Below, one piece after another: positions 5,626 to 63,980 of a stretch of 64,000 nucleotides of DNA; within the stretch, counting starts at the first letter, position 1; every line of letters begins with the position of its first letter. This stretch comes from an uncultured delta proteobacterium. GTDB lineage: Bacteria > Desulfobacterota > WTBG01. The notes below the pieces were generated by a model. That model saw only the letters and a program-made list of their open reading frames with translations. It was not told where the DNA came from and did no database searches. Location of the stretch: the NCBI GenBank assembly GCA_963751515.1, contig CAVVUR010000002.1:69888-133887 (forward strand), read 5' to 3'. The position numbers were made by a program, and so were the translations under genes.

Positions 5626-5926
5626 CTAGCAGGCTGTTGAAAAACACCCATCTGATTCGTGGCTCAAAGGGGAGGGGCTTTTGACGCCACAACAATTTGT
5701 CTTTAGACTTACGGCACGACCCGGTGCCTTCGACTTGAACCGAAAGCAGGCAGCTTTGCAGAGACTTCGATACGGCTGCTGCCATGCGGGTCTGTCGGAC
5801 AAAGTTAGAGAGATGCTGCCGTTCTACAGGTTCCGAATACTTTTGTTGTGGCTAAAAAGCCCTTCCCCCTTGAGCCACATACTTTTGAACAGCCTGAGGA
5901 AAGCTATTATTTCAACAGCCTGCTAG
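5626..5926 (+). repeat. Nested palindromic intergenic repeat, copy 1 (core 5659-5878 inside a CTA...TAG-flanked shell, variant A)
   Basis: Core has ~36-bp terminal inverted repeats, GTGGCTCAAAGGGGAGGGGCTTTTGACGCCACAACAA / TTGTTGTGGCTAAAAAGCCCTTCCCCCTTGAGCCAC. Outer inverted repeat is CTAGCAGGCTGTTGAAAAA ... TTTCAACAGCCTGCTAG. Five further copies occur in the window. Confidence 0.9.
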
Positions 5927-8363: not shown

Positions 8364-8696
8364 TGTAGTGCGTCATTGATTCCTTTATTTATATGTGGCT
8401 CAAGGGGGAGGGGCTTTTTAGCCACAACAAAATTATTCCGGATCCTGTAGAACGGCAGCGTCTCTCTAACTTTGTCCGACAGACCCGCGTGGCACCAGCC
8501 TGTATCGAAGCCTCTGCAAAGCTGCCTGTCTGCGGTTGAAGTCACAAGGCACCGGGTCGTGCCGTAAGCGTAAAGACACATTGTTGTGGCGTCAAAAGCC
8601 CCTCCCCTTTGAGCCACTGAACCTCTTCTACGGCATGGTATTCGCAACGCACAGGAGCCTTTCATAAGTAAAGATGTGTTGGACGCACTACACTAG
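8360..8696 (-). repeat. Nested palindromic intergenic repeat, copy 2 (core 8395-8617, inverted; shell variant B), followed by a half-copy of the variant-A shell at 8693-8735
   Basis: Same core as copy 1 in opposite orientation. Outer inverted repeat is CTAGTGTAGTGCGTC ... GACGCACTACACTAG. The left TAG (8361-8363) is the acsE stop codon. Confidence 0.9.
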
Positions 8697-47530: not shown

Positions 47531-48951
<1,421 letters not shown>

Positions 48952-49018: not shown

Positions 49019-49338
49019 GTGTAGTGCGTCCAAGACATCTGGCTCCTGTGCGTTGCGAATACCATGCTCTAGAAGAGGTGCAGTGGCTCAAAGGGGAGGG
49101 GCTTTTGACGCCACAACAATTTGTCTGTACGCTTACGGCACGACCCGGTGCCTTACGACTCAAACCGCAGACAGGCAGCTTTGCAGAGGCTTCGATACAG
49201 GCTGTTGCCATGCGGGTCTGTCGGACATAGTTTGAGATTCGCTGCCGTTCTACAGGCTCCGAATAATTTTGTTGTGGCTAAAAAGCCCCTCCCCTTGAGC
49301 CACATATAAATAAAGAAATCAATGACGCACGACACTAG
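49019..49338 (+). repeat. Nested palindromic intergenic repeat, copy 3 (core 49083-49303; shell variant B)
   Basis: Shares core and shell with copy 2. The right-hand CTAG (49335-49338) contains the nfnA stop codon (minus strand). Confidence 0.9.
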
Positions 49339-51126: not shown

Positions 51127-51417
51127 CAGGCTGTTGAAAAACACCCATCTGATTCGTGGCTCAAAGGGGAGGGGCTTTTGACGCCACAACAATGTGTCTT
51201 TACGCTTACGGCACGACCCGGTGCCTTCGACGCGAACCGAAAGCAGGCAGCTTTGCAGAGGCTTCGATAGAGGCTGTTGCCATGCGGGTCTGTCTGACAA
51301 AGTTAGAAAGTCGCTGCCGTTCTACCGGTTCCGAATAGTTTTGTTGTGGCTCAAAAGCCCCTTCCCTTTGAGCCTTTGAACGGCCTGAGGAAAACTACTT
51401 TTTCAACAACCTGCTAG
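51123..51417 (+). repeat. Nested palindromic intergenic repeat, copy 4 (core 51156-51374; shell variant A)
   Basis: Near-identical to copy 1. The left TAG (51124-51126) is the stop codon of the preceding ORF. Confidence 0.9.
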
Positions 51418-51426
51418 AGCGAGGAC

Positions 51427-51798
51427 ATGGCCATGGCTGAAGGATACACGCCGCTGATCATTTTTCTTTTCCTGTCGGTTCTCTTCGCGGGGGCTGTCAT
51501 CGCTCTGTCGGCCCTTTTCGGACGGAAGGCAGCGACCCGGGAAAAGCTTATGCCCTACGAATGCGGCCTTGACCCGGTGGGCAATGCGCGAACGAGGTTC
51601 TCGGTCAAGTTTTTCATCATTGCCATGCTGTTTATCGTCTTCGACGTGGAGGCGATGTTTTTATACCCCTGGGCGATTGTCTTCCGGCAGTTTAACCAGT
51701 TTAAAGGCTTTGTCTTTTTAGAAATGGCTGTTTTTATCGGTATCCTGCTGGTCGGCTTTATATATGTGTGGAAGAAGGGGGCTCTGGAATGGGAGTAG
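51427..51798 (+). CDS. nuoA: NADH-quinone oxidoreductase subunit A
   Basis: 123 aa, 3 TM helices, YECG motif, FDVE. Confidence 0.85.
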
Positions 51799-52274
51799 AA
51801 AGCTATCTTGGTGATACCATTATCACCACCACCCTTGAGAAAGTAGTCAACTGGGCCCGAAAATCATCGCTCTGGCCCGCGACCTTCGGGCTGGCCTGCT
51901 GCGCCCTCGAAATGATGGCCACCGCCGCCGCCCGCTACGATATTGCCCGCTTTGGCGCCGAGGTCTTCAGGGCCTCGCCGCGGCAGGCAGACCTGATGAT
52001 TGTTGCCGGCACCCTGACCAGAAAAATGGCGCCCGTGGCCAGGAGGATCTACAATCAGATGCCCAATCCCAAGTGGGTCATTGCCATGGGCGCCTGCGCA
52101 TGCTCGGGCGGAATCTTTGACACCTACGCCGTGGTGCAGGGGGTGGATGAGATTATCCCCGTGGATGTGTATATGCCCGGATGCCCGCCCCGGCCGGAAG
52201 CATTGCTCTACGCCATCATGCAGCTTCAGAAAAAGATAGAAAAGGAACACTTAAGGGAAAAGAACCATGGCTAG
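51789..52274 (+). CDS. nuoB: NADH-quinone oxidoreductase subunit B
   Basis: GLACCA..., GACA.SGG and PGCPP cluster-N2 motifs. Start ATG 51789 overlaps the nuoA stop. Confidence 0.85.
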
Positions 52275-52728
52275 TATGGAAGAGTTGGTCGGGAAAATAA
52301 AGGAAACCTTTCCCCAGGCCATCGAAGAAACGGCAGTCTATAAGGATGAGCATACCATACGGGTCAAGCTGTCATACCTGCTCGAGGTCTCGCGCTTCCT
52401 CAAGGAAGACACGTCATGCGGCTTTGACTTCCTCTCCGACCTCTGCGGCGTCGACTACATGGGCCGGGTGCCCCGCTTTGAGGTGGTCTATCACCTGTAT
52501 TCCCTGAAACACCGGCACCGGCTGCGCATGAAAATCTCCCCCTCGGACGAGGACCTTACCGTGCCTTCCGTGGTTTCTGTCTGGAAGACGGCGGACTGGC
52601 ACGAGCGGGAGTGCTACGATCTTTTCGGCATAACCTTCAGGGATCATCCTGATTTGAGGAGAATTCTCACTCCTGACGGGTTTACAGGGTATCCGCTCAG
52701 AAAAGATTTTCCGCTGCGGGGAAGATAA
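52267..52728 (+). CDS. nuoC: NADH-quinone oxidoreductase subunit C
   Basis: 153 aa, 30-kDa subunit motifs (W.ERE..D.FGI.F..HPD). Confidence 0.85.
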
Positions 52729-52737
52729 ACGGGGGCA

Positions 52738-53934
52738 TTGCATAGCATGGAAACGGCGTCTGACATCAGGACAGAGTTGGTAACCCTGAACATGGGGCCC
52801 CAGCACCCAAGCACCCACGGGGTGCTGCGGGTGGTGCTGGAGCTCGACGGCGAGGTGGTCACCAAGGCAACCCCGGTGCTGGGGTATCTGCACCGGGGCA
52901 TCGAGAAGCTGGCCGAGCATAAAACCTACCACCAGTTCATTACCCTCACCGACCGGCTGGATTATACCTCGCCCTTTATCAACAACCTTGCCTACGTGCT
53001 TACGGTTGAGAAGCTTCTCGACCTGGAGGTTCCGCTCCGGGCCCAGTATATCAGGGTGCTGCTCGCAGAGCTTACCAGGATCCAGAGCCACCTCATCTGG
53101 CTGGGAACCCATGCCCTGGACATCGGGGCCATGTCGCCGCTGCTCTACTGCTTCCGCGAGCGGGAAGAGACCCTGGACATGTTTGAAATGGTGGGCGGGG
53201 CCCGGATGAACCAGAGCTACTTTCGCATCGGGGGCCTTGCCGCCGACCTGCCCGACGGGTTTGAAGAAAAGGTGAAGGCGTTCTGTGAGGTGCTGCCCTC
53301 GCGGATTGACGGGTACGAGCGCCTGCTGACGGAAAATAAGATCTGGCTCAACCGGACAAAGGGCGTGGGCGTCATTTCAGCGGAAGAGGGGATCGCCCTG
53401 GGACTTTCCGGTCCCTGCCTGAGGGGCTGCGGGGTACAGTGGGACCTGCGCAAGGCCAACCCCTATTCGTCCTACGATCACTTTGATTTCGAGATACCCA
53501 CCGGCCGGTACGGGGATTCGTATGACCGCTACCTGGTGCGGCTGGAGGAGATGCGCCAGAGCAACCGGATCATCAGGCAGGCCCTGGAGCGGCTGCCCTC
53601 GGGCCCGTTCAACGCCGTGAGCCCCAAGGTGGTGCCTCCGCCGAAGGAACTGGTGCAGGAAAATATTGAGTCATTGATCATCCACTTCCACCTCATGACC
53701 GAAGGTTTTAATGTGCCCAAAGGTGAGGCGTATTGCAGCGTGGAGTCGTCAAAAGGCGAGCTGGGCTTTTATATTGTGAGCGATGGGGGCAGCAAGCCCT
53801 ACCGGGTGAAGATCCGCACCCCCTCGTTTGTGAACATGGAATCGTTCTCCACCATGGCGCAGGGGCGTATGATGGCGGACATCGTTGCCATTATCGGCAG
53901 CATTGACATCTGCCTGGGAGAGGTGGATCGCTAG
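52738..53934 (+). CDS. nuoD: NADH-quinone oxidoreductase subunit D
   Basis: NMGPQHPSTHGVLR and the 49-kDa subunit pattern. Confidence 0.9.
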   Translation: MHSMETASDIRTELVTLNMGPQHPSTHGVLRVVLELDGEVVTKATPVLGYLHRGIEKLAEHKTYHQFITLTDRLDYTSPFINNLAYVLTVEKLLDLEVPLRAQYIRVLLAELTRIQSHLIWLGTHALDIGAMSPLLYCFREREETLDMFEMVGGARMNQSYFRIGGLAADLPDGFEEKVKAFCEVLPSRIDGYERLLTENKIWLNRTKGVGVISAEEGIALGLSGPCLRGCGVQWDLRKANPYSSYDHFDFEIPTGRYGDSYDRYLVRLEEMRQSNRIIRQALERLPSGPFNAVSPKVVPPPKELVQENIESLIIHFHLMTEGFNVPKGEAYCSVESSKGELGFYIVSDGGSKPYRVKIRTPSFVNMESFSTMAQGRMMADIVAIIGSIDICLGEVDR

Positions 53935-53963: not shown

Positions 53964-54338
53964 ATGACCTTTAGAGAGTTGGCGAATATTTTAGGAGCTG
54001 AGGTTCTGGTCGGGGACGAACGCATGGATAGTACGATTAGGGACGCCTTTGCCGCCGACCTCTTAAGCGATGTTCTGGCCTTTGCCAAGGAGGGTACGCT
54101 CCTGATAACCGGGATCACCAATCCGCAGGTGGTGCGCACCGCTGAAATGCTCGAGCTGCTGGGCATTGTATTCGTGAGGGGCAAAAGGCCTGACGAGGAA
54201 GCAGTCAAGCTCGCCCGGGCGAAAAAGATACCGCTTTTGTGCACCCGTTACATCATGTTTGAAACCTGCGGCAGGCTGTTCTCAAGCGGTATGGTCGGTT
54301 GTATTGAAAGAGTGGAAAATGCAGGAAAAACAGGCTGA
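53964..54338 (+). CDS. DRTGG-domain protein
   Basis: 124 aa: DLLSDVL...LITG..N.Q.VRTA. Paralogue at 56103. Confidence 0.55.
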   Translation: MTFRELANILGAEVLVGDERMDSTIRDAFAADLLSDVLAFAKEGTLLITGITNPQVVRTAEMLELLGIVFVRGKRPDEEAVKLARAKKIPLLCTRYIMFETCGRLFSSGMVGCIERVENAGKTG

Positions 54339-54762
54339 GCCCCTGTTGGAGCAGGAATTCATTGTGCAGGGTGGTGATTTCATCCATGCCGGCGAGGTTT
54401 CAAGCAGCATTAAGGCCATCTTAAAAGAGATCGGCATAAGCCACGACGTCATCAGGCGGGCTGCCATTGCCACCTACGAAGCGGAGATGAACGTCGTGTG
54501 CTACGCGCGGCGGGCTGCCTTTCATCTGGCCATTACCCCTGACCGGCTGACGGTTATTGCCGAGGACGAAGGGCAGGGCATTGCCGATCTCGAGCGGGCC
54601 ATGCAGGAAGGGTTTTCAACCTCCTCCAGGGAAATCAAGGAAATGGGTTTCGGGGCGGGCATGGGGCTGCCCAACATCAAGAAGAACACCGATGAATTGC
54701 GCATCAGTTCGGTGGTGGGGGAAGGCACGCGTCTGGAAATGGTTATCTTTACCCGGAAATAA
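54319..54762 (+). CDS. Anti-sigma-factor-like Ser-kinase / HATPase_c-fold ATP-binding protein
   Basis: Start at internal ATG 54319; EDEGQGI...GFGAGMGL G-box-like motifs. Confidence 0.5.
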   Translation: MQEKQAEPLLEQEFIVQGGDFIHAGEVSSSIKAILKEIGISHDVIRRAAIATYEAEMNVVCYARRAAFHLAITPDRLTVIAEDEGQGIADLERAMQEGFSTSSREIKEMGFGAGMGLPNIKKNTDELRISSVVGEGTRLEMVIFTRK

Positions 54763-54771
54763 AGACGATCC

Positions 54772-56085
54772 ATGAGCAAATATTATCACTCCATTGAAGT
54801 GGAAACCGATAAATGCACCGGCTGCATGCAGTGCATGCGGGCATGCCCCACCGAGGCCATGCGCATCCGTGAGGGCAAGGCCCTCATCCTGGAGGACCGG
54901 TGCATTGACTGCGGTGACTGCATCCGGGTGTGTCCCGCCCGGGCGGTCCGATCCATGACCGGGTCGTTCGAAGACTTGACCAGGTTTAAATACACCATCG
55001 CCATACCTTCTCCCGTCCTTTACTCCCAGTACGGCATGGGGATTACCCCCAACCATATTTTAAACGGTCTTAAGGGCCTGGGTTTTAACGAGGCCTATGA
55101 TGTGGGCAAGGCCTGTGAAATTTATTCGGCGGTGCTCAAAGAACACCTCCACAGCTATTCTCAAAACAAGCCCTACATCTCAACCGTCTGCCTGGCCGTT
55201 GTCAGGCTCATCCAGATAAACTTTCCCGATCTCATGGGAAATCTGCTTTCCATGGAGGCGCCCAGCGCCATCGCCGGAGCTTACAAGATGGCCAAGGCCA
55301 AAATACTGGGAATAAGCCCCCAGGATGTCGGGGCCATTTTTATCACCCCCTGCCCCGCCAAGATGATCGCCGTAAATCACCCCATCTTCAAATCGGATCC
55401 GACCCTGGACGGGGCCATTGCCATTTCGGATATCTACGGGGTTCTCTTCAGCGCCATCCGCAAGATCAAGGCGCTTGAGCCGCTTCACGACTCGGGCGGC
55501 TTCGGTGTGGCTACGGGGATCCCCGGCGCGTGCATTGCCGGCCTCGAAATCGAGAATGCCATAGCCGTGGACGGGGTTAAAAATGTAATCAACATACTGG
55601 AGGACGTGGAGCGCGGCAAAATCACCAATGTAAACTATCTGGAATTATGGGCCTGCCCGGGCGGGTGCGTGGGGGGCCCCCTTGCGGTGGATAATCGCTT
55701 TCTGGCCAAGATCAAGGCCATGAAACTGATTCAGCAGATGGGGAGGAATTTAAACATTAACCTCGCTGAAGTGGAGCGGATGCGCGCCCACCTGTCATGC
55801 GATGTTGAGCTGTCCACCTATCCCGTGCAGCCGCTGAGCACGGATGCCAGGGAGGCGATCAGGAAAGTAAAGGAGCGGGAATCCATTTTAGAGAGCCTCC
55901 CGCGCATTAATTGCGGGGCATGCGGCGCCCCAAACTGCAAATCCTTTGCCGAGGATGTCGTTCAGGGAAGGGGTGAGGTCACTGATTGCGTGTTCAAGCT
56001 CAAGGAGGCGACCATGGAATCGCTCCGCAGGGGACTTGAAATAGCTCAGAAAGCCCCTCTTTCGATTCGCAAGCGGGGAGCATAA
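54772..56085 (+). CDS. [FeFe]-hydrogenase-like protein (putative sensory, HydS/Hfs-type): 2x[4Fe-4S] + H-cluster-domain-like + C-terminal Cys cluster
   Basis: CTGCMQCMRACP and CIDCGDCIRVCP; H-domain-like TPCPAK and WACPGGCVGGP; C-terminal CGACGAPNC....C. Confidence 0.6.
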   Translation: MSKYYHSIEVETDKCTGCMQCMRACPTEAMRIREGKALILEDRCIDCGDCIRVCPARAVRSMTGSFEDLTRFKYTIAIPSPVLYSQYGMGITPNHILNGLKGLGFNEAYDVGKACEIYSAVLKEHLHSYSQNKPYISTVCLAVVRLIQINFPDLMGNLLSMEAPSAIAGAYKMAKAKILGISPQDVGAIFITPCPAKMIAVNHPIFKSDPTLDGAIAISDIYGVLFSAIRKIKALEPLHDSGGFGVATGIPGACIAGLEIENAIAVDGVKNVINILEDVERGKITNVNYLELWACPGGCVGGPLAVDNRFLAKIKAMKLIQQMGRNLNINLAEVERMRAHLSCDVELSTYPVQPLSTDAREAIRKVKERESILESLPRINCGACGAPNCKSFAEDVVQGRGEVTDCVFKLKEATMESLRRGLEIAQKAPLSIRKRGA

Positions 56086-56102
56086 GCAGCAGGGGAGCAG
56101 GC

Positions 56103-56444
56103 ATGAAGCTGAAGGAAATCATTGACCGGTTGGAGCTGAAGGTGGCGGCCGGGGAGAACCTGGACCGGGAAGTGGCCGGGGGGTACGCGAGCGACCTCTT
56201 AAGCGATGTCATGGCCAACAGCAGGGAGGGGGATATCTGGGTGACCCTGCAGGCACATCCCAATATCATCGCCGTTGCCTCCCTCAAGGGCATGGCCGGC
56301 GTGGTTATTGTGCAGGGCAGAACCCCCGAGGCACAAACGGTGGACAAGGCCCGGCAGGAAGACATTCCCCTTATGGTCACCGGGCTGCAGACCTTTGAGC
56401 TCGTCGGCAGGTTATACGGCCTCGGCATTTCCGGAATGAGGTGA
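56103..56444 (+). CDS. DRTGG-domain protein
   Basis: 113 aa; DLLSDVMA...VTLQAHPN; paralogue of 53964. Confidence 0.55.
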   Translation: MKLKEIIDRLELKVAAGENLDREVAGGYASDLLSDVMANSREGDIWVTLQAHPNIIAVASLKGMAGVVIVQGRTPEAQTVDKARQEDIPLMVTGLQTFELVGRLYGLGISGMR

Positions 56445-57193
56445 TGCTCAGAGCATATCGGGCTGATTTGCATATCCATTCCATCCTTTCTCCCTGCACC
56501 GAACCTGCCGAGATGTCGCCCCGCGCCATTGTAAAGCGGGCAGGGGATGCGGGTTTGCATCTGATAGCCGTGTGCGATCATAACTCCTGTGAGAATCTTC
56601 CCGCGCTTCAAAAGGCGGCAGAGGCGACCAGTCTGGCGGTGCTGGCAGGTATGGAGATAACCACTCGGGAAGAAATTCATATTCTGGGCCTTTTTGATAC
56701 GGAGGCGCATGCCTTTGAGGTGCAGAAGGTTGTGTACGAGCATCTCTCCGGCGAAAACGATGAAAAAGCCTTCGGCTGCCAGGTGGTGGTCAACGAGCAT
56801 GAGGAGGTAGTTTCCTTTAATAAAAAATTGCTGATCGGGGCAACCACGCTTTCCCTGGAAGCGGTGGTTGAACTCATTCATTCCCGCGGCGGCATAGCCA
56901 TTGCTTCGCACATTGATCGCGAGGCATACAGCATCATAAGCCAGCTCGGCTTTGTTCCGCCGGGGCTGGCGCTGGATGCGCTGGAGGTTTCGCCGGCCAC
57001 GGGCCTGGATGAGGCGCGCCGGCGTTTCCCCGGGCTTGATCACCTTCCCTTCATCAGCTCATCGGACGCCCACTCCCTTGACGGGATCGGGAGTAGTTCA
57101 ACCGTCTTTCTGATGGAAGCTGCAGGCATCGACGAAGTGAAGCTGGCGCTTGCCGGAAGGGAGGGCAGAAAGGTGCTCGGGGGACAGGGATAG
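56441..57193 (+). CDS. PHP-domain (polymerase/histidinol-phosphatase-like) phosphoesterase
   Basis: DLHIHS.LSPC...AVCDHN...ASHIDR...SDAH metal-binding His/Asp pattern. Confidence 0.6.
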   Translation: MMLRAYRADLHIHSILSPCTEPAEMSPRAIVKRAGDAGLHLIAVCDHNSCENLPALQKAAEATSLAVLAGMEITTREEIHILGLFDTEAHAFEVQKVVYEHLSGENDEKAFGCQVVVNEHEEVVSFNKKLLIGATTLSLEAVVELIHSRGGIAIASHIDREAYSIISQLGFVPPGLALDALEVSPATGLDEARRRFPGLDHLPFISSSDAHSLDGIGSSSTVFLMEAAGIDEVKLALAGREGRKVLGGQG

Positions 57194-57194
57194 C

Positions 57195-57740
57195 GTGCAG
57201 GATTTCTCCCTCCACATTCTGGATCTGGTTGAGAATTCCATAACTGCCGGGGCAACGCGGATCGAGATCGGGATAGACGAGGACAGCAGCAGGGATCTGC
57301 TCAGCATAGAGATTACCGACGACGGCAAGGGCATGAGCAGGGAGATGGCGGGCAGGGTGCTGGATCCTTTTGTGACAACGCGGACGACCAGAAAGGTGGG
57401 CCTGGGGTTGCCGCTCTTTGCCCAGGCGGCCCGGGCGTGCAATGGCGGGGTTCACATAGAATCCGCGCCGGGCCGGGGGACGAAGCTGACCGGTACCTTT
57501 CAGGCAAGCCATATTGATCGCAAGCCCTGGGGAAGCATGGTTGAGACCCTGATCACCCTCATCGCAGGCAATCCCGGGATCAGCTTTTATTATCATCATC
57601 GCAAGGATGACCGAACCTACCGCCTTGACACAGCGGCGATCGGGAAGGAGCTGGGCGAGGTCCCCGTTTCCGATCCCCGGGTGATCGGGCTGATCAGGGG
57701 CGATCTCGAGGAGGGCCTGGCGCAATTAGGCGTGCAATGA
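57195..57740 (+). CDS. HATPase_c-fold ATP-binding protein
   Basis: GTG start at 57195; LVENSITAGA...DDGKGM...GLGLP.. N/G1/G2-like boxes. Confidence 0.5.
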   Translation: MQDFSLHILDLVENSITAGATRIEIGIDEDSSRDLLSIEITDDGKGMSREMAGRVLDPFVTTRTTRKVGLGLPLFAQAARACNGGVHIESAPGRGTKLTGTFQASHIDRKPWGSMVETLITLIAGNPGISFYYHHRKDDRTYRLDTAAIGKELGEVPVSDPRVIGLIRGDLEEGLAQLGVQ

Positions 57741-57849
57741 ACAATGTTATATGGTGAGTGAGGGCCGTTTGCGCCACAACACCCATAATTTGATAATTGG
57801 CCTGCGGGGTCAGAATAATTTTGATTACATCCCATGGTAGCGGGGACAC

Positions 57850-58070
57850 GTGGCTCACGGGGAGGGGGTTTTTAAAGCCACAACAATTTGTCCCTTGGCT
57901 TACGTCACGACCCCGTGCCTTACGAATTAAGCCGCGGACAGGCAGTTTCCACGGGCTTCAACGAAGGCTGTTGCCATGGGGTCTGTCGGTACGAATTTAC
58001 AAGGCATCTGCCGTTCTACAGGTTCCGAATAATTTTGTTGTGGCTTTAAAACCCCCTCCCCGTGAGCCAC
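57850..58070 (+). repeat. Palindromic intergenic repeat core, copy 5 (diverged subfamily C)
   Basis: GTGGCTCACGGGGAGGGGGTTTTTAAAGCCACAACAA ... TTGTTGTGGCTTTAAAACCCCCTCCCCGTGAGCCAC; no CTAG shell. Confidence 0.85.
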
Positions 58071-58190: not shown

Positions 58191-58700
58191 ATGACCGCAG
58201 AATCAGCGCAGAAGCAGCAGGAAGTTACCGTGGAGATAACCGCGGAACAGTGGGAAAAGGTTGACCGGGTCATCGATGACCACGTCGGCAAGCCCGGTTC
58301 GCTCATACCCGTTCTCCAGCAGTGTCAGGACGTGTGCGGCTTTCTGCCCGCCGAGGTGCAGCGCAGAATTGCCGAAGGCCTGAACATATCGCCCAGCCTG
58401 GTGTACGGGGTGGTATCCTTCTACTCCTATTTTACCATGAAGCCCCGGGGCAAGTACAATGTCCGCGTCTGCCTGGGAACGGCCTGCTTCGTCAAGCGGA
58501 GCGAGGAAATATACAAGCGGCTGCAGCAGGAGCTGGGCATCCACGAAGGCGAGGTGACGCCGGACATGAAATTTTCCCTGGAGGGCGTGCGCTGCATCGG
58601 GTGCTGCGGCCTTGCGCCGGCCATGATGGTCAACGAGGACACCTATGGCCTGCTGGAGCCGGCGACGGCTCTGGACACCATAAAGAAAAATTATTATTAG
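58191..58700 (+). CDS. nuoE: NuoE/HndA-type [2Fe-2S] subunit
   Basis: 169 aa; thioredoxin-like [2Fe-2S] pattern CLGTAC....CIGCCGLAP. Confidence 0.8.
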   Translation: MTAESAQKQQEVTVEITAEQWEKVDRVIDDHVGKPGSLIPVLQQCQDVCGFLPAEVQRRIAEGLNISPSLVYGVVSFYSYFTMKPRGKYNVRVCLGTACFVKRSEEIYKRLQQELGIHEGEVTPDMKFSLEGVRCIGCCGLAPAMMVNEDTYGLLEPATALDTIKKNYY

Positions 58701-58728: not shown

Positions 58729-59112
58729 ATGCCGAAACTGACGCTCGATGACTTAAAACGGATAAAGGAAGAATCAAAAGCCGCGACCACCCTCCGGGAA
58801 GGCGGCCAGCGCGTCAAGATAACCGTCCACATGGGCACCTGCGGAATCGCGTCCGGGGCGCGGGCGGTCATGAGCGCCTTTATGGATGAGATTGCCAAGC
58901 GGCAGGTCACGGATGTCATCGTTACCACCTCCGGATGCGCGGGGCTATGCAGCCGCGAGCCCATGGCCACGGTTGAGCTTCTCGGCGAAGCGCCGGTCAA
59001 GTACGTGGATCTGGATGACGGGAAGAGCAGGGAGATTCTGGTGGAGCACGTTATCGGCGGCAGGATGGTGGAAAAATATGCCCTGGCGGTGGGCAGTGAA
59101 ACGACCTATTAA
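58729..59112 (+). CDS. Thioredoxin-like [2Fe-2S] ferredoxin (HndB-like)
   Basis: 127 aa; C..G.. and TSGCAGLC motifs; sits between the nuoE-like and nuoF-like genes, as in Hnd/HydABC-type loci. Confidence 0.6.
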   Translation: MPKLTLDDLKRIKEESKAATTLREGGQRVKITVHMGTCGIASGARAVMSAFMDEIAKRQVTDVIVTTSGCAGLCSREPMATVELLGEAPVKYVDLDDGKSREILVEHVIGGRMVEKYALAVGSETTY

Positions 59113-59133: not shown

Positions 59134-60921
59134 ATGAAAACCTTTCGCTCACATGCGTTGATTTGCGCCGGAACCGGCTGTGTGTCCAACAAGTCGCTAC
59201 AAGTACGAACGGCGCTTGAAGAAGAGCTCAAGAAGTGCGGACTGGAGGAAGAGGTGCAGGTGGTCATCACCGGGTGCAACGGCTTCTGCGCCGTCGGCCC
59301 GGTCATGGTGGTCTACCCCGAGGGGATCTTTTATCAAAAGCTCACCCGGGAGGACATCCCCCTGCTGGTGTCGGAGCATTTCCTCAAGGGAAGGCCGGTC
59401 GAGAAGCTCATGTACCGGGAGGAGGAAAAGAAGGCGACGGTGCCCCGCATGCAGGACATCTCCTTCTTCGGGCTGCAGGTGCTCCGCGCCTTACGGAACC
59501 GCGGCATCATCGACGCTGAAAAGATTGATGAGTACATCGCCCGCGACGGATACCAGGCCCTGGGAAAAGCGCTTACCGAGCTGACGCCCGAGGGCATCGT
59601 CGAGGAGGTCAAGATTTCCGGGCTTCGGGGCCGCGGCGGCGCCGGTTTCCCCACCGGGCTGAAGTGGGAGTTCTGCGCCAAGGCCAGGGGCGAGGTGAAG
59701 TATGTTTTGTGCAATGGGGATGAGGGTGACCCCGGCGCGTTCATGGACCGCAGCATCCTGGAGGCGGACCCGCATTCGGTTTTGGAGGGGATGACCATCG
59801 CGGCCAGGGCCATCGGCGCCCATCAGGGCTACATTTACGTGCGCGCGGAATATCCGCTCGCCGTTTCCCGGCTCAAGGTGGCCATCCGGCAGGCGCGGGA
59901 CTACGGCCTGCTCGGAAAGAACATTCTTAACTCGGGCTTCGATTTTGACATTGACATTTACCAGGGAGCCGGGGCGTTTGTCTGCGGCGAGGAAACGGCC
60001 CTGATGACCTCCATTGAAGGGAAGCGGGGCATGCCGCGGCCGCGGCCGCCGTTCCCCGCGTACAAGGGGCTGTGGAGAAAGCCGACCATTTTAAACAACG
60101 TGGAGACCTACGCCAATGTTCCGCCCATCATCCTGCACGGCGGCAGCTGGTACAGCGAGCTGGGAACGGAAAAGAGCAAGGGCACCAAGGTCTTTGCCGT
60201 GACCGGCGCGGTCAACAACATCGGCCTGGTTGAAGTGCCCATGGGCACCAGCCTGCGCTCCATCATCTATGATATCGGCGGCGGCATCAAGGGCAAGCGC
60301 AAGTTCAAGGCGGTGCAGATGGGCGGCCCGTCGGGCGGGTGCATTCCCGAGTCGCTGGTTGACACCCCGGTGGATTATGAGTCGATCAGTCAGACCGGTG
60401 CCATCATGGGGTCCGGCGGCATGGTGGTGATGGATGAAACCACCTGCATGGTCGATATCGCCAAGTTCTTCCTGGGCTTTACCCAGGAGGAATCATGCGG
60501 AAAGTGCATTCCCTGCCGGGTGGGAACCAAGATGATGCTTGATATCCTGACCCGGATAACCGCGGGCGAGGGGAAGGAAGAAGACCTGGAGACGCTCAGC
60601 GACCTGGCAGGCACTATCAAGGCCACGGCCCTCTGCGGCCTGGGCAATACCGCGCCCAACCCGGTGCTCACCACCCTGCGCTATTTTCGTGATGAATATG
60701 AGGCGCATGTGCGGGAAAAGCGCTGCCCGGCGCACTCCTGCATTTCCCTCATCAAGTTCACGGTCAACCCCGAGCTCTGCAAGCGGTGCGGCCAGTGCTT
60801 CAAGGCCTGTCCCGCCGGGGCGGTTGCCTGGGAAAAGAAGCAGGTGGCCACAATCGACCGGGAGAAGTGCGTCAAGTGCAAGAACTGCATCATGGCCTGT
60901 AAGTTCAATGCCATTGAGTAG
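59134..60921 (+). CDS. nuoF: NuoF/HydB/HndC-type NAD(H)-, FMN- and FeS-binding subunit with extra N-terminal [2Fe-2S] and C-terminal 2x[4Fe-4S] domains
   Basis: 595 aa: GLRGRGGAGFPTG, NGDEGDPGAF, ESCGKCIPCR; N-terminal CAGTGC...GCNGFC; C-terminal CKRCGQCFKACP / CVKCKNCIMAC. Confidence 0.8.
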   Translation: MKTFRSHALICAGTGCVSNKSLQVRTALEEELKKCGLEEEVQVVITGCNGFCAVGPVMVVYPEGIFYQKLTREDIPLLVSEHFLKGRPVEKLMYREEEKKATVPRMQDISFFGLQVLRALRNRGIIDAEKIDEYIARDGYQALGKALTELTPEGIVEEVKISGLRGRGGAGFPTGLKWEFCAKARGEVKYVLCNGDEGDPGAFMDRSILEADPHSVLEGMTIAARAIGAHQGYIYVRAEYPLAVSRLKVAIRQARDYGLLGKNILNSGFDFDIDIYQGAGAFVCGEETALMTSIEGKRGMPRPRPPFPAYKGLWRKPTILNNVETYANVPPIILHGGSWYSELGTEKSKGTKVFAVTGAVNNIGLVEVPMGTSLRSIIYDIGGGIKGKRKFKAVQMGGPSGGCIPESLVDTPVDYESISQTGAIMGSGGMVVMDETTCMVDIAKFFLGFTQEESCGKCIPCRVGTKMMLDILTRITAGEGKEEDLETLSDLAGTIKATALCGLGNTAPNPVLTTLRYFRDEYEAHVREKRCPAHSCISLIKFTVNPELCKRCGQCFKACPAGAVAWEKKQVATIDREKCVKCKNCIMACKFNAIE

Positions 60922-61021: not shown

Positions 61022-61237
61022 GTCTGTGGGAGGGGGATTTTTTAAGCCACAACAAAATTATTCGGAGCCTGTAGAACGGCAGCTGCCTTGTAAATTCACT
61101 CCGACAGACCCCATGGCAAGAGCCTTTGTTGAAGTCCGTGGAAGCTGCCTGTTCGCGGCTTAATACGTAAGGCACGGGGTCGTGACGTAAGCTGACAGAC
61201 AAATTGTTGTGGCTTTAAAAACCCCCTCCCCGCAGAC
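61022..61237 (-). repeat. Palindromic intergenic repeat core, copy 6 (subfamily C, inverted), plus an extra half-arm at 60975-61003
   Basis: GTCTGTGGGAGGGGGATTTTTTAAGCCACAACAAAA ... TTGTTGTGGCTTTAAAAACCCCCTCCCCGCAGAC; the centre matches copy 5 in reverse complement. Confidence 0.85.
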
Positions 61238-61370: not shown

Positions 61371-63980
61371 ATGATTAGTTTGACCATTGACGATCGGGAA
61401 ATAGAGGTAGCGGATGGCTCCACCATCCTCGAGGCCGCGGAGGCTGCCGGGGTTTTTATTCCCACCTTTTGCTACCACAAGCGCCTGATGCCCTTCGGGG
61501 CGTGCCGCATGTGCGTGGTTGAGGTTGAGCAGATGAAAGGCCGGCTGGTCCCTTCCTGCTCCACGCCGGCCGCCAACGGTATGGTGGTGAACACCAACAC
61601 CCCCGCGGTGCGAAGCGCCCGCAAAACCCTGCTTGAGCTGCTGCTGGTTCACCATCCCCTGGATTGTCCCGTGTGCGACAAGGGGGGCGAGTGCAAGCTG
61701 CAGGACCTGGTGTATGAATACGAGGTGAGCAGCAACCGCTTTCTTGACCGGAAGCTCAGCCAGCCGGCTGAAACCGCCTCGCACCTGATAGAAAGGAATG
61801 TGAACCGCTGCGTGCTCTGCGGGATGTGCGCGCGGGTGTGCGAGGAGATGGTGGGCGTAGCCGAAATCAGCTTTGTCAACCGGGGATTCAAGACCAGGAT
61901 CGGCACCGACTTTGACCGGGTGCTGGACTGCGAGTTCTGCGGCGAGTGTGTTAACATCTGCCCGGTGGGCGCCCTGACCGACAAGCTTTTCAAATACAAG
62001 GCCCGTTCCTGGGAGCTTGTCAGGACGGACACCGTCTGTTCCTATTGCAGCACCGGCTGCACCATCACCCTGGGGGTAAAGAACAACCGAATCTACCGGG
62101 TGATCGGGGATGACAGCATCGGGGCCAACCGGGGGAGCCTCTGCGCGAAGGGCCGGTTCGGCTACGGGTATGTCTCCAGCCCTGAGCGGATGAACAGCCC
62201 CCTGGTGAGAAAGGGCGCCGAGGGGCTGGTGCGGGCGACCTGGGCGGAGGCGATGGAGAAAATAGCGGAAGGTCTGGGCGCGGTCAAACAGAAATACGGG
62301 CCCGACGGGATCGGCGGCATCTGCTCCGGCCGCCTGACCAACGAGGAGGCCTACCTGTTTCAGAAATTTCTGCGCGCTGCCATAGGCACCAACAACATCG
62401 ACCATGCCGGGGGATACAGCTACTCGGGGCTGATGAAGGGACTGAGGCCCGCACTGGGCTTGACCGCGGGCACCGCCACGCTGAACGACATACGCAATGC
62501 GGACACCGTGTTCCTGCTGCGCTGCCACCTCTCCGAGACGCATCCGGTGGTGGGATACCAGGTTACCATGGCGGTAAAGCGGGATGAACGGAAGCTGGTT
62601 GTCGCCAGCGAGCGGCCGATCAAGCACAGCCGGCTGGCCAGCTGCGCGCTCATCCACCGGCCCGAAACCGAGCTGGTCCTGCTGCAGGGCATGATCAATA
62701 TCATTATCAGCGAGGGGCTGTACGACAGGGAGTTTGTCTCTTCCTCCACCGCCGGTCTTGAAAATCTTAAGCATTCGGTAGCCCGGTACACCCCGGAGCA
62801 CTGTGAAGGGGTGACCGGCGTTGGCCGGGATGACCTCGTGCAGGCAGCCCGACTGATTGCAGGCAGCAAGCGGCTGTGCATCCTCCTTTCCACCGGCCTG
62901 GGGATTCCCGCGGATGATGAAAAGCTGGGTCTGGCGGTGGCCAACCTCGCCCTGCTGACCGGCATGGTGAAGCGGGAGGGATGCGGCATCGCCTTCCTGG
63001 GGGAGAAGTGCAATGCCCAGGGCACACTGGACATGGGAGTGCTTCCCGGTTTTCTGCCCGGATTCGATGAAGTGGGTGATGACAAGACGCGGGGCCGCTT
63101 TGAAGAAGCGTGGAAGGTGACCCTTCCCGCGCGGCCCGGCCACAACGCCATGGAAATGATCACCAGCGCGGCGGAAGGCAGGCTGCACGCGCTGTACCTG
63201 GCAGGGGAAAATCCGCTGCTGAACTATCCTGAGAGCGAATACACCCGGAAGGCCCTGGAGTCCCTGGATTTCCTGGTGGTGCAGGACATGTTTTTAACCC
63301 CCACCGCCCGGCAGGCCGACGTCGTGCTGCCGGTGGCCAGCTTTGCCGAGAAAAGAGGAACTTATACCAGCTTCGAGCGGAGGGTGCAGGCGCTGTCCCC
63401 GGCGCTGCCGGTGCTGGAAGGGGTCAAAACAGACCTGGAAATTTTCTGCGAGCTGTCCCGCAGAATGGGGCATGCCATGAAGGCAACCGGGCCCGAGGAT
63501 GTGATGAAGGAGATCGGCTCGCTGGTTCCTCTCTACGCGGGCGTCAGCTGCGAATCCCTCGGAGCGGGAGGCCGGCTTGTGCCGTCCCCGCCGGCCGGCC
63601 CGAGGACGAGCTACAGCTTTTTCCCGCTCGAGCATGTCGAACCGGCCCGCGGGACTGATGGTGACTATCCGCTGCTGCTGCGCACCGGCAGCATGCTTTT
63701 TCATTCCGGTTCCCTGTCAACCCACGCCCCGGCGTTGAACGAGCTCGGGTCCGGCGGCAGGGTGGATGTGTCTCCTGCCGATGCCAGGGCATACGGCCTT
63801 GGGGATGGAGAGAAGGTGCTGGTTACATCAAGGATGGGGTCACTGGAGGCAAAGGTGAAAATCAGCAGAAAGCAGGCGAAGGGAATGGTGTATATTCCCT
63901 GCCACTTCGCAGCCCACCCCGTCAACCGGCTGACCAGCAGGGAGCTTGTCCCGACCCGGGTTAAGCTGGAAAAGATGTAG
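61371..63980 (+). CDS. nuoG: NuoG-type 75-kDa subunit ([2Fe-2S] + [4Fe-4S] clusters + molybdopterin-oxidoreductase-like domain lacking an obvious Cys/Sec Mo ligand)
   Basis: 869 aa: CYHKRL..GACRMCVVE, HPLDCPVCDKGGEC, CVLCGMCARVC, CGECVNICP, CSYCSTGC. The formate-dehydrogenase active-site position reads HAGGYSYSG, with no C/U-H. Confidence 0.75.
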   Translation: MISLTIDDREIEVADGSTILEAAEAAGVFIPTFCYHKRLMPFGACRMCVVEVEQMKGRLVPSCSTPAANGMVVNTNTPAVRSARKTLLELLLVHHPLDCPVCDKGGECKLQDLVYEYEVSSNRFLDRKLSQPAETASHLIERNVNRCVLCGMCARVCEEMVGVAEISFVNRGFKTRIGTDFDRVLDCEFCGECVNICPVGALTDKLFKYKARSWELVRTDTVCSYCSTGCTITLGVKNNRIYRVIGDDSIGANRGSLCAKGRFGYGYVSSPERMNSPLVRKGAEGLVRATWAEAMEKIAEGLGAVKQKYGPDGIGGICSGRLTNEEAYLFQKFLRAAIGTNNIDHAGGYSYSGLMKGLRPALGLTAGTATLNDIRNADTVFLLRCHLSETHPVVGYQVTMAVKRDERKLVVASERPIKHSRLASCALIHRPETELVLLQGMINIIISEGLYDREFVSSSTAGLENLKHSVARYTPEHCEGVTGVGRDDLVQAARLIAGSKRLCILLSTGLGIPADDEKLGLAVANLALLTGMVKREGCGIAFLGEKCNAQGTLDMGVLPGFLPGFDEVGDDKTRGRFEEAWKVTLPARPGHNAMEMITSAAEGRLHALYLAGENPLLNYPESEYTRKALESLDFLVVQDMFLTPTARQADVVLPVASFAEKRGTYTSFERRVQALSPALPVLEGVKTDLEIFCELSRRMGHAMKATGPEDVMKEIGSLVPLYAGVSCESLGAGGRLVPSPPAGPRTSYSFFPLEHVEPARGTDGDYPLLLRTGSMLFHSGSLSTHAPALNELGSGGRVDVSPADARAYGLGDGEKVLVTSRMGSLEAKVKISRKQAKGMVYIPCHFAAHPVNRLTSRELVPTRVKLEKM

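Follow-up and report, generated by a model that had tools for sequence, protein, structure and literature searches.

A Six-gene Cassette Encoding a Group D HydS Homologue Lies within a Nuo-Bfu Complex I Operon of an Uncultured Delta Proteobacterium

Results

Organization of the nuo operon and its cassette

The stretch of DNA analyzed in this work (hereafter the window) comprises 64,000 nucleotides of contig CAVVUR010000002.1 (positions 69,888 to 133,887 of the forward strand; assembly GCA_963751515.1) from an uncultured delta proteobacterium of the Desulfobacterota. The subject of this study is a cassette of six genes that, in the list of open reading frames (ORFs) of the window, occupies positions 53964-57740 of the plus strand directly after nuoD and encodes two DRTGG-domain proteins (DRTGG1 and DRTGG2), two GHKL-type ATPases (HATP1 and HATP2), a protein related to sensory [FeFe] hydrogenases (the HydS-like protein) and a PHP-family phosphoesterase (Table 1). 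A preliminary description, made from the sequence alone, had proposed these six genes, and all of the ORFs were found where it had placed them, with domain assignments that were upheld by Pfam and NCBIfam. The successive spacings from nuoD through the cassette genes are +29, -20, +9, +17, -4 and about 0 nt, i.e. an operon-like packing. The nuoA-N set is complete, with nuoA-D preceding the cassette and nuoE, a gene for a small 2Fe-2S protein, nuoF and nuoG following it within the window; the nuoH, I, J, K, L, M and N genes lie just past the window end on the contig, and unrelated genes come after them. The assembly holds a single nuoA/nuoC/nuoI set, which is that of the operon carrying the cassette, and the same genome contains one copy of the cassette versus at least six other NuoF paralogues.

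The NADH input module

When compared with solved structures, the NuoF protein scored 867 and 834 bits against the bifurcating HydB proteins 7t2r_B and 7q4v_B, respectively, versus 417 bits against Thermus Nqo1, and it contains an extra 2Fe-2S_thioredx domain (residues 7-79) and an extra Fer4 domain (residues 542-594). The 127-aa 2Fe-2S protein is 55-67% identical to the product of the gene located at the same position in loci from Aminicenantes, Acidobacteria and Ignavibacteria, and it is a constant companion of the cassette and BfuB. Because NuoF is HydB-like, NuoE is HoxE/HydC-like and the 2Fe-2S protein is HydD/HndB-like, the input module corresponds to the BfuBC core, that is, the HydC/HydB-type NADH-FMN/ferredoxin module with its small 2Fe-2S protein. 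NuoG fell short of the cut-offs of two family models (TIGR01973, 465 versus 470 bits; TIGR01591, 543 versus 666 bits) and was nearer overall to FdsA, an NAD-dependent formate dehydrogenase (475 bits), than to any NuoG of solved structure (313 bits), and it retains the four cysteines of the Molybdop_Fe4S4 domain. An active formate dehydrogenase, and hence a formate-driven complex I, was nevertheless rejected because the active-site Cys-His pair is replaced by Ser-Tyr in the alignment to FdsA (6tg9_A/9wxb_B), and NuoG is predicted from this alignment to be a non-catalytic NuoG/BfuA.

Judged by its gene content, the operon is assigned as encoding a Nuo-Bfu complex I, with a full nuoA-N set in which BfuABC-type genes take the place of nuoEFG. 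Nuo-Bfu enzymes have been described as 14-gene complex I clusters with BfuABC replacing NuoEFG, e.g. in Geobacter sulfurreducens (Schut et al. 2022, PMC9304861), and they are predicted to confurcate NADH and reduced ferredoxin onto menaquinone (PMC9304861); kinases and sensors receive no mention in that paper. The operon of the window shares with them the 14 nuoA-N genes, the HydC/HydB-type NuoE and NuoF, a NuoG-like BfuA in the middle and a BfuB with extra 2Fe-2S and 2x[4Fe-4S] domains, but it differs in having six regulatory-type genes and a HydD-like 2Fe-2S protein embedded in it, and the sister genera depart further, in that their BfuB carries a GltD/NfnB-like domain as a fusion and that the genes of a Cache kinase and a sigma-54 regulator have been inserted as a pair (see below). 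Of the earlier claim of a six-gene insertion between nuoD and nuoE, the position stands, but the implied ordinary nuo operon does not, since nuoE, nuoF and the 2Fe-2S protein between them also resemble HydC, HydB and HydD, respectively.

At least six further NuoE/NuoF-type loci are scattered over the same genome (contigs C1, C4, C10, C15 twice, C16 and C17), none of them with the cassette. In several of these loci the following proteins match only residues 1-205 of NuoG, and the C1 locus has MvhD-like and Fdh-like genes nearby.

The 437-aa protein as a group D HydS homologue

The HydS-like protein contains two ferredoxin motifs (C15/C18/C21/C25 and C44/C47/C50/C54, located by the Fer4 matches), both the ITPCPAK and the WACPGGCVGG motif, and a C-terminal cluster of the form C381-x2-C384-x4-C389-x16-C406, so that the two ferredoxin clusters, the TPCPAK and ACPGGC motifs and the C-terminal cysteine cluster of the preliminary description were all confirmed. 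The H-cluster ligands C140, C194, C295 and C299 (motifs P1, P2 and P3) are invariant in the H-domain. P1 reads S-T-V-C140, with a single cysteine, and the proton-relay cysteine (C299 of CpI) is missing; P2 reads T192-P-C194, with Thr192 at the position of CpI M353. Pfam searches revealed no PAS domain in the protein, 31 residues remaining after C406, and no Fe_hyd_SSU small-subunit domain. The scores with catalytic families were far below the cut-offs (TIGR02512, 82 versus 406 bits; TIGR04105, 129 versus 450; NF040763, 71 versus 765), and the profile alignment of group D versus group A HydA had a probability of 99.8%.

Loss of the relay cysteine and replacement of M353 by Ser or Thr define group D, or M2e (PMC8163306), whose model enzyme is TamHydS of Thermoanaerobacter mathranii, which has a histidine-kinase-like ATPase as its neighbor (PMC8163306, PMC13104023). 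The 437-aa protein is classified from these motifs as a putative sensory [FeFe] hydrogenase homologue of group D (M2e, TamHydS-type), not a catalytic enzyme. A catalytic group A [FeFe] hydrogenase was ruled out by the scores below the cut-offs, the single cysteine in P1 and the lack of a small-subunit domain, and the sensory rather than catalytic character that had been proposed is thereby borne out. The Hfs/HydS-type label attached to it earlier has to be replaced by group D/M2e, since a group C HydS/HfsB is ruled out by the absence of a PAS domain and by a different set of partner genes. The group C proteins (Thermotoga maritima TmHydS, Ruminococcus albus HydS and those of the Thermoanaerobacterium hfsABCD type) likewise lack a proton pathway, carry an extra C-terminal cluster and have phospho-signaling neighbors, but they possess a PAS domain and are accompanied by PP2C-type phosphatases or Ser/Thr kinases.

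The resemblance to TamHydS extends to the 2x[4Fe-4S] region, the H-domain, the Cx2Cx4Cx16C cluster, the lack of a PAS domain and of the C299 relay cysteine, and a hydroxyl residue at the M353 position; R30/R32 and E392/D393 of TamHydS match the conserved R31/R33 and E394/D395 of the protein studied here, and the TamHydS gene also adjoins a NuoE/NuoF-type module with GHKL ATPase genes. In contrast, the window protein is only about 38-40% identical to the Firmicutes clade and falls in a separate clade of the tree, its partner is complex I rather than HydABC, its host lineage lacks HydG, HydF and a catalytic [FeFe] hydrogenase, and the Trp equivalent to F417 is replaced. As a separate observation, C18, which completes the CxxCxxCxxxC pattern of the first ferredoxin motif, is present in the window's genus; in the majority of the other group D proteins, among them those from the family's remaining genera, this position is taken by Ser or by some other residue.

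The companion proteins

DRTGG2 is a paralogue of DRTGG1 (35% identity). DRTGG1 has the invariant motif D32-L-x-S35-D36-V37 and DRTGG2 an SDLxSDV motif, DLxSDV being invariant in both. The AlphaFold model of DRTGG1 (pLDDT 93.6) had as its top structural matches other DRTGG domains (2ioj, AF1212, TM 0.79-0.81; 3l2b) and the N-terminal domain of HPr kinase, and this fold search ruled out that the DRTGG proteins are disguised STAS domains.

HATP1 most likely starts at the ATG at 54319, which gives a protein of 147 aa, the same length as that of its relatives. Its N-box and its G1 and G2 boxes are conserved. The best named matches were the anti-sigma F factor SpoIIAB and RsbW, with 45 bits versus a cut-off of 135 for TIGR01925 (spoIIAB), and a single solved structure was matched in sequence, the serine-protein kinase RsbW 6m36 (E = 7e-4). 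Within the cassette, only HATP1 has a kinase-like relative of known function (RsbW/SpoIIAB). The PHP protein retains its metal-binding His and Asp residues and matched in sequence the solved structures 3e0f and 7ug9 (YciV/RNase AM-type); among the residues kept in 90% or more of the 76 orthologues aligned are H11, H13, D46, H47, E72, H80, H157, D209 and H211. The model of HATP2 (pLDDT 86.7) has a small extra domain, and its top full-length structural matches were the ATPase domains of MutL/PMS2 and Topo VI-B, those with histidine-kinase catalytic domains covering just about 105 residues.

The cassette accompanies the BfuBC core

The proteins of the window were mapped onto 80 genomic loci encoding relatives of the HydS-like protein, and the partner genes downstream were classified by Pfam scans. 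Most of the loci that are long enough share the ordered block DRTGG1, HATP1, HydS, DRTGG2, PHP, HATP2, nuoE, fdx (the gene of the small 2Fe-2S protein) and nuoF. The order in Firmicutes is PHP, nuoE, HATP2, fdx and nuoF, followed by hydA; in a few loci nuoE precedes the cassette, and elsewhere the nuoE-fdx-nuoF genes are found upstream or on the other strand, or are missing from the vicinity. The partner is a true HydA in Firmicutes (L025, 355 bits for Fe_hyd_lg_C), and the previous statement that this gene set is known beside bifurcating HydABC-type enzymes agrees with these loci. In Aminicenantes and Acidobacteria (L004 and L034) the partner is a BfuA of about 590 aa without an H-domain, followed by MvhD, the small and large [NiFe] subunits and HycI. 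Elsewhere it is a GltD-fused BfuA (L028), a molybdopterin-type BfuA (L067 and L077) or complex I (the window, L003 and L083-L109), and the next gene could not be recognized in L010 and L112. An obligate tie to [FeFe] HydABC was therefore rejected, since outside Firmicutes the downstream proteins of about 590 aa that were examined lack an H-domain and, in L004 and L034, precede [NiFe] genes.

The nuo-linked sequences grouped into a single clade of the HydS tree (SH-aLRT 99), which shows that they have one origin; the sister group of this clade comprises 42 loci, among them the [NiFe]-linked L004 and L034, and the Firmicutes clade is well apart from it. In L111, a related Nuo-Bfu operon with a NuoF of 76% identity, fdx is present without the cassette, and a Thermodesulfobacteriota genome (L112) has the cassette and BfuBC without nuo genes. 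Taken together, these two loci indicate that the cassette is an accessory of BfuBC that can be gained or lost. The NuoF of the window is 72-76% identical to those of both the Nuo-Bfu locus without a cassette and the non-nuo BfuBC locus with one, and the NuoF phylogeny thus gives no origin for the block. From this distribution the cassette is assigned to the BfuBC core and not to hydrogenases as such, and because in the window that core is the input module of the 14-subunit Nuo-Bfu complex, the cassette lies between nuoD and nuoE.

A partial counterpart is the hydC-hydE-hydD-hydB-hydA1 cluster of Acetobacterium woodii, whose HydE is a histidine-kinase-like ATPase that was not in the purified enzyme (PMC3315566). 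HATP2 corresponds to this HydE and the 127-aa protein to HydD, and the gene order matches that of the Firmicutes loci (nuoE-HATP2-fdx-nuoF-hydA). Unlike the cassette, the A. woodii cluster as described comprises hydA1-hydE only, with no DRTGG, RsbW-like, HydS or PHP genes listed, and its partner is a true hydrogenase. Literature searches for the combination of DRTGG, PHP, hydrogenase and kinase returned nothing.

Conservation and selection in the order

The window's order was represented by 11 species genomes from a single family and seven genera, and completeness reached 90% or more in three of these genomes. A HydS homologue was found in 9 of the 11, and in all nine of these cassette-bearing genomes nuoD is directly followed by the cassette and all of its frames are intact. 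The nuoA-N operon of the sister species (G005, 98% complete) is the same as that of the window, and a metagenome contig whose HydS is 49% identical (L109) carries a compact array of nuoBCD, the six genes, nuoE, fdx, nuoF, nuoG and nuoH. The suspicion that the cassette had not come to lie in a complex I operon by accident is thus well founded, in view of the nuoD-cassette junction in nine of nine genomes and in L109. The ratio of nonsynonymous to synonymous substitutions (dN/dS) within the genus was 0.09-0.24 for all six cassette genes versus 0.11 for nuoF, which indicates that no cassette gene is decaying and that all six are under purifying selection.

In other genera of the family (L106, 3970-13493; L083, L085 and L103) the genes for a Cache histidine kinase, a sigma-54 response regulator, an M54 peptidase and a 310-aa GCV_H-domain protein lie between HATP2 and nuoE. 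The NuoF of those genera is a 1016-aa fusion with a GltD/NfnB-like domain (Fer4_20 plus Pyr_redox_2) that resembles StnC of the Sporomusa-type Nfn, and nuoG and nuoH-L follow; this fusion could add NADPH to the substrates of complex I there.

The divergence between the window and the sister species (L101 in the locus set) is mosaic. HydS, HATP2 and nuoF show synonymous divergences (dS) of 0.12-0.15 and 91-97% amino acid identity, and DRTGG1, HATP1, DRTGG2 and PHP show dS values of 0.41-0.62 and 80-89% identity, a pattern that suggests recombination within the cassette.

Maturases and the H-cluster pocket

No HydG or HydF was found above the cut-offs in the 11 genomes of the order: the best HydG score was 43 bits versus 312, and the best HydF score was 99 bits versus 325 and covered the GTPase domain only. 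A complete set of the maturases HydE, HydF and HydG was therefore not encountered, HydE not having been searched. No second Fe_hyd_lg_C protein besides the HydS homologue was detected in these genomes, one of which is 98% complete in 10 contigs, and a true HydA used as query retrieved no other H-domain from the window's genome. When the maturase and H-domain searches were checked on 14 control genomes, scores exceeded the cut-offs in 2 of them. Contigs C6 and C15 of the same genome carry genes for the large subunit of [NiFe] hydrogenase together with HycI.

All sixteen cluster cysteines are kept in the HydS-like protein. Position W248, which corresponds to CpI F417, is 97% conserved in the other 79 sequences and is T, M or L in the window's order; in CpI, F417 packs against the 2Fe subcluster. 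Within the window's genus P141 (the position of CpI P301) is changed to L and G253 to A, and the K358 position is occupied by E in one relative. With HydG, HydF and any other [FeFe] hydrogenase missing and the F417 equivalent changed, an intact H-cluster, and so the sensing of H2, is unlikely here, and we infer from the residues retained that the protein keeps its Fe-S clusters and has lost the 2Fe site. H2-responsive control, which had been suggested for this operon, becomes doubtful given that these genes are missing in 11 of 11 genomes of the order.

Repeats and genes around the conserved operon

Each of the two 450-nt gaps of the operon, HATP2/nuoE and nuoF/nuoG, contains a 204-nt element that resembles a miniature inverted-repeat transposable element (MITE), with terminal inverted repeats of 26-28 nt. 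There are at least 93 near-full copies in the 2.96-Mb assembly, six of them in or beside the nuo operon (upstream of nuoA and in HATP2/nuoE, nuoF/nuoG, nuoI/nuoJ and nuoJ/nuoK; Table 1). No copies were found in the operon of the sister species or of the other relatives examined, and the sister-species gaps measure about 35 nt (HATP2/nuoE) and 65 nt (nuoF/nuoG). Its absence from the sister operon, despite protein identities of 80-99%, suggests that the element spread very recently in a burst. That the gaps mark the borders of an operon, or of a nuoE-fdx-nuoF block that was transposed, was rejected, since each one is accounted for by a MITE insertion that the sister species lacks. The best sigma-70-like promoter match of the region (57790-57819, TTGATA-18-AATAAT, 10/12) follows HATP2 just before the repeat and could, as a predicted site, be a secondary start for nuoE-N in this genome.

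Upstream of the operon, the block of an NfnA-like gene (minus strand), an NfnB-like gene (minus), a DUF3786 gene (plus) and nuoA is syntenic throughout the family. The NfnB/GltD-like gene (Fer4_20 plus Pyr_redox_2; 47670-48951, minus strand) appears in the window as a 330-aa ORF and an overlapping 136-aa ORF, and relatives have one 473-aa gene; the split is probably a frameshift or a consensus error.

Table 1. Features of the nuo operon, its cassette and the associated repeats (window coordinates unless indicated)
Feature	Position	Strand	Description
nuoA	51427-51798	+	ORF; orthologues of nuoA-D in relatives match Pfam Oxidored_q4, Oxidored_q6, Complex1_30kDa and Complex1_49kDa
nuoB	51768-52274	+	ORF
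nuoC	52267-52728	+	ORF
nuoD	52738-53934	+	ORF
DRTGG1	53964-54338	+	124 aa; PF07085, E 2e-10
HATP1, RsbW/SpoIIAB-like GHKL ATPase or serine kinase	54319-54762 (ORF opens 54259)	+	HATPase_c_2, E 4e-9
Group D (M2e) HydS-like protein	54772-56085	+	437 aa; Fe_hyd_lg_C, E 9e-26; two Fer4 motifs; PF04060
DRTGG2	56103-56444	+	113 aa; weak Pfam match, 7e-5
PHP-family metal-dependent phosphoesterase	56441-57193	+	250 aa; PF02811, E 5e-9; PHP_C; start overlaps DRTGG2 stop by 4 nt
HATP2, stand-alone GHKL ATPase	57195-57740 (ORF opens 57150)	+	about 181 aa; HATPase_c, E 9e-16
MITE-like repeat copy 1, HATP2/nuoE gap	57858-58061	+	204 nt; outside the conserved operon
nuoE/BfuC, HydC-type 2Fe-2S subunit	58191-58700	+	169 aa; PF01257, E 7e-48; top NCBIfam match HoxE, 153 bits
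Small 2Fe-2S protein, HydD/HndB equivalent	58729-59112	+	127 aa; NF041612, 34 bits
nuoF/BfuB	59134-60921	+	595 aa; extra N-terminal 2Fe-2S and C-terminal 2x[4Fe-4S] domains
MITE-like repeat copy 2, nuoF/nuoG gap	61029-61232	-	inverted relative to copy 1
nuoG/BfuA	61371-63980	+	869 aa; FdsA-like overall, non-catalytic (predicted)
Further MITE-like copies	51166-51366; 49093-49294; 5669-5868; 8405-8607; L002 2833-3016 and 3663-3863		

Discussion

Group D HydS proteins with companion genes and Nuo-Bfu enzymes were each known already, and what is new in this operon is their combination in a lineage without HydG and HydF. How the group D sensory hydrogenases pass on their signal, and which target they regulate, is not known to the field (PMC8163306, PMC13104023). 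The presence of a HydS cassette together with Nuo-Bfu in such a lineage suggests that the cassette regulates the BfuBC input module and may not sense H2. We lean, on balance, toward the view that the cassette is a redox-responsive, post-translational switch on the BfuBC module, which is here the input of complex I, and the following putative mechanism would fit its genes and motifs. The HydS homologue, in a cell without the maturases, would carry [4Fe-4S] clusters only and would report the redox poise of the ferredoxin or NADH pool rather than H2. There is a eukaryotic parallel in Nar1/NARFL, an H-domain protein without the 2Fe subcluster that probably carries [4Fe-4S] clusters only and acts in Fe-S assembly. 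HATP1, the RsbW-like GHKL kinase, would receive the signal together with both DRTGG proteins, whose DLxSDV motif may be a phosphate acceptor or may bind a ligand; the PHP phosphoesterase would reset the switch, and HATP2 would act beside BfuC and BfuB. The net effect would be that electron entry through BfuBC is switched or tuned after translation in an ATP-driven manner. The full proposal, in which a group D "hydrogenase" has been kept as an H-cluster-free sensor of ferredoxin/NADH redox poise and, together with a device of DRTGG proteins, RsbW-like kinase, PHP and GHKL ATPase, gates a confurcating complex I post-translationally, is put forward tentatively and may well not hold in all its parts.

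Among the closest precedents for such a device is the partner-switching module (SpoIIAB-SpoIIAA-SpoIIE or RsbW-RsbV-RsbU), in which a small RsbW/SpoIIAB-like GHKL protein is likewise encoded with small single-domain partners and a phosphoesterase. The cassette differs from it in that the phosphoesterase is a PHP protein and not PP2C, in that no sigma factor or other DNA-binding output is encoded and in that HATP1 is far under the cut-offs of the family models. Several further observations weigh against a redox switch built in this way. The partner has a DRTGG fold and no STAS protein is encoded; the PHP relatives of known function use nucleotides (pAp, RNA 5' ends) and not proteins; and the fold of HATP2 is nearer to the MutL/Topo VI-B clamp ATPases than to a kinase. 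The Nuo-Bfu operon that lacks the cassette indicates that the latter is dispensable for the enzyme as such, and the cassette and nuoE are about 5.7 kb apart, with other genes between them, in other genera of the family. In addition, the four H-cluster cysteines and K197 (the K358 equivalent) are conserved in the clade and would also fit a functional H-cluster, for which a maturation route of another kind is conceivable.

These last residues, together with the Thr at the M353 position, are also what would be expected of a genuine H2 sensor with a full H-cluster, through which the Nuo-Bfu complex I would respond to hydrogen partial pressure. The affinity of TamHydS for H2 is high and its turnover low (PMC8163306), the [NiFe] hydrogenase genes on contigs C6 and C15 make H2 physiologically relevant for this organism, and links to [NiFe] hydrogenases are found in the sister clade of the cassette. 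Such a sensor seems unlikely, however, in an order in whose 11 genomes neither HydG, HydF nor any other [FeFe] hydrogenase was found and in which the F417-equivalent aromatic residue has been lost throughout, the P301 equivalent being lost as well in the window's genus. The measurable H2/H+ turnover of TamHydS (PMC8163306), the ferredoxin-like N-terminal cluster relay and the location of the gene inside a structural operon could also be taken as signs of an extra catalytic input, i.e. a weak but real hydrogenase, or another redox enzyme, docked on Nuo-Bfu and delivering electrons from H2 into complex I. We give this very little credence, because HydG and HydF are absent (HydE was not searched), the proton-transfer pathway is missing, the scores are far under the catalytic cut-offs (82 versus 406 and 129 versus 450), the same protein adjoins enzymes that already hold a hydrogenase, and kinase-like and phosphoesterase genes always accompany it.

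A different role, that of chaperones or of cofactor-insertion or quality-control factors for the cluster-rich BfuBC, would account for the strict linkage of the six proteins to BfuB, BfuC and the 2Fe-2S protein whatever the partner enzyme. The H-domain of Nar1/NARFL offers a model for it, as does the fold of HATP2, which is like that of dimerizing clamp ATPases (MutL, Hsp90 or Topo VI-B type), and a role "in assembly or signalling" was suggested for A. woodii HydE (PMC3315566). Nevertheless, the L111 Nuo-Bfu has the 2Fe-2S protein and no cassette, Geobacter-type Nuo-Bfu needs no such genes (PMC9304861), and the pairing of an RsbW-like kinase with a phosphoesterase is more typical of reversible switching, so that a function in assembly or maturation appears rather improbable. 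It could finally be argued that the cassette has been left over from a hydrogenase operon now lost and is itself decaying, in a lineage that lost or never had [FeFe] hydrogenases and their maturases (as searched through HydG and HydF), or that it is a separate unit that happens to adjoin nuo, since in this genome the operon might be divided by the 450-nt gaps with their repeats and by the promoter-like site at 57790-57819. This reading is largely refuted by conservation and retains almost no likelihood: the frames are intact in nine of nine genomes with the low dN/dS values given above, the order from nuoD into the cassette is identical across genera and in L109, and the gaps are recent MITE insertions that the sister species does not have.

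The redox-responsive switch on BfuBC thus remains the interpretation that we favor, and the locus can be regarded as a natural experiment, in which the sensor and its five companions are kept under selection in the operon of a complex I with a bifurcating-type NADH module, in bacteria without [FeFe] hydrogenases or HydG/HydF. It points to the BfuBC core as the likely target of the cassette, which may work without H2 chemistry. It also suggests that in some anaerobes the entry of electrons into complex I is controlled post-translationally, a kind of control that was not described for bacterial complex I in the literature searched. If this interpretation is true, the function of the cassette would lie not in hydrogen signaling but in serving as a portable switch of general use to the BfuBC flavin/FeS core, and the group D "sensory [FeFe] hydrogenases" would not always be sensors of H2.

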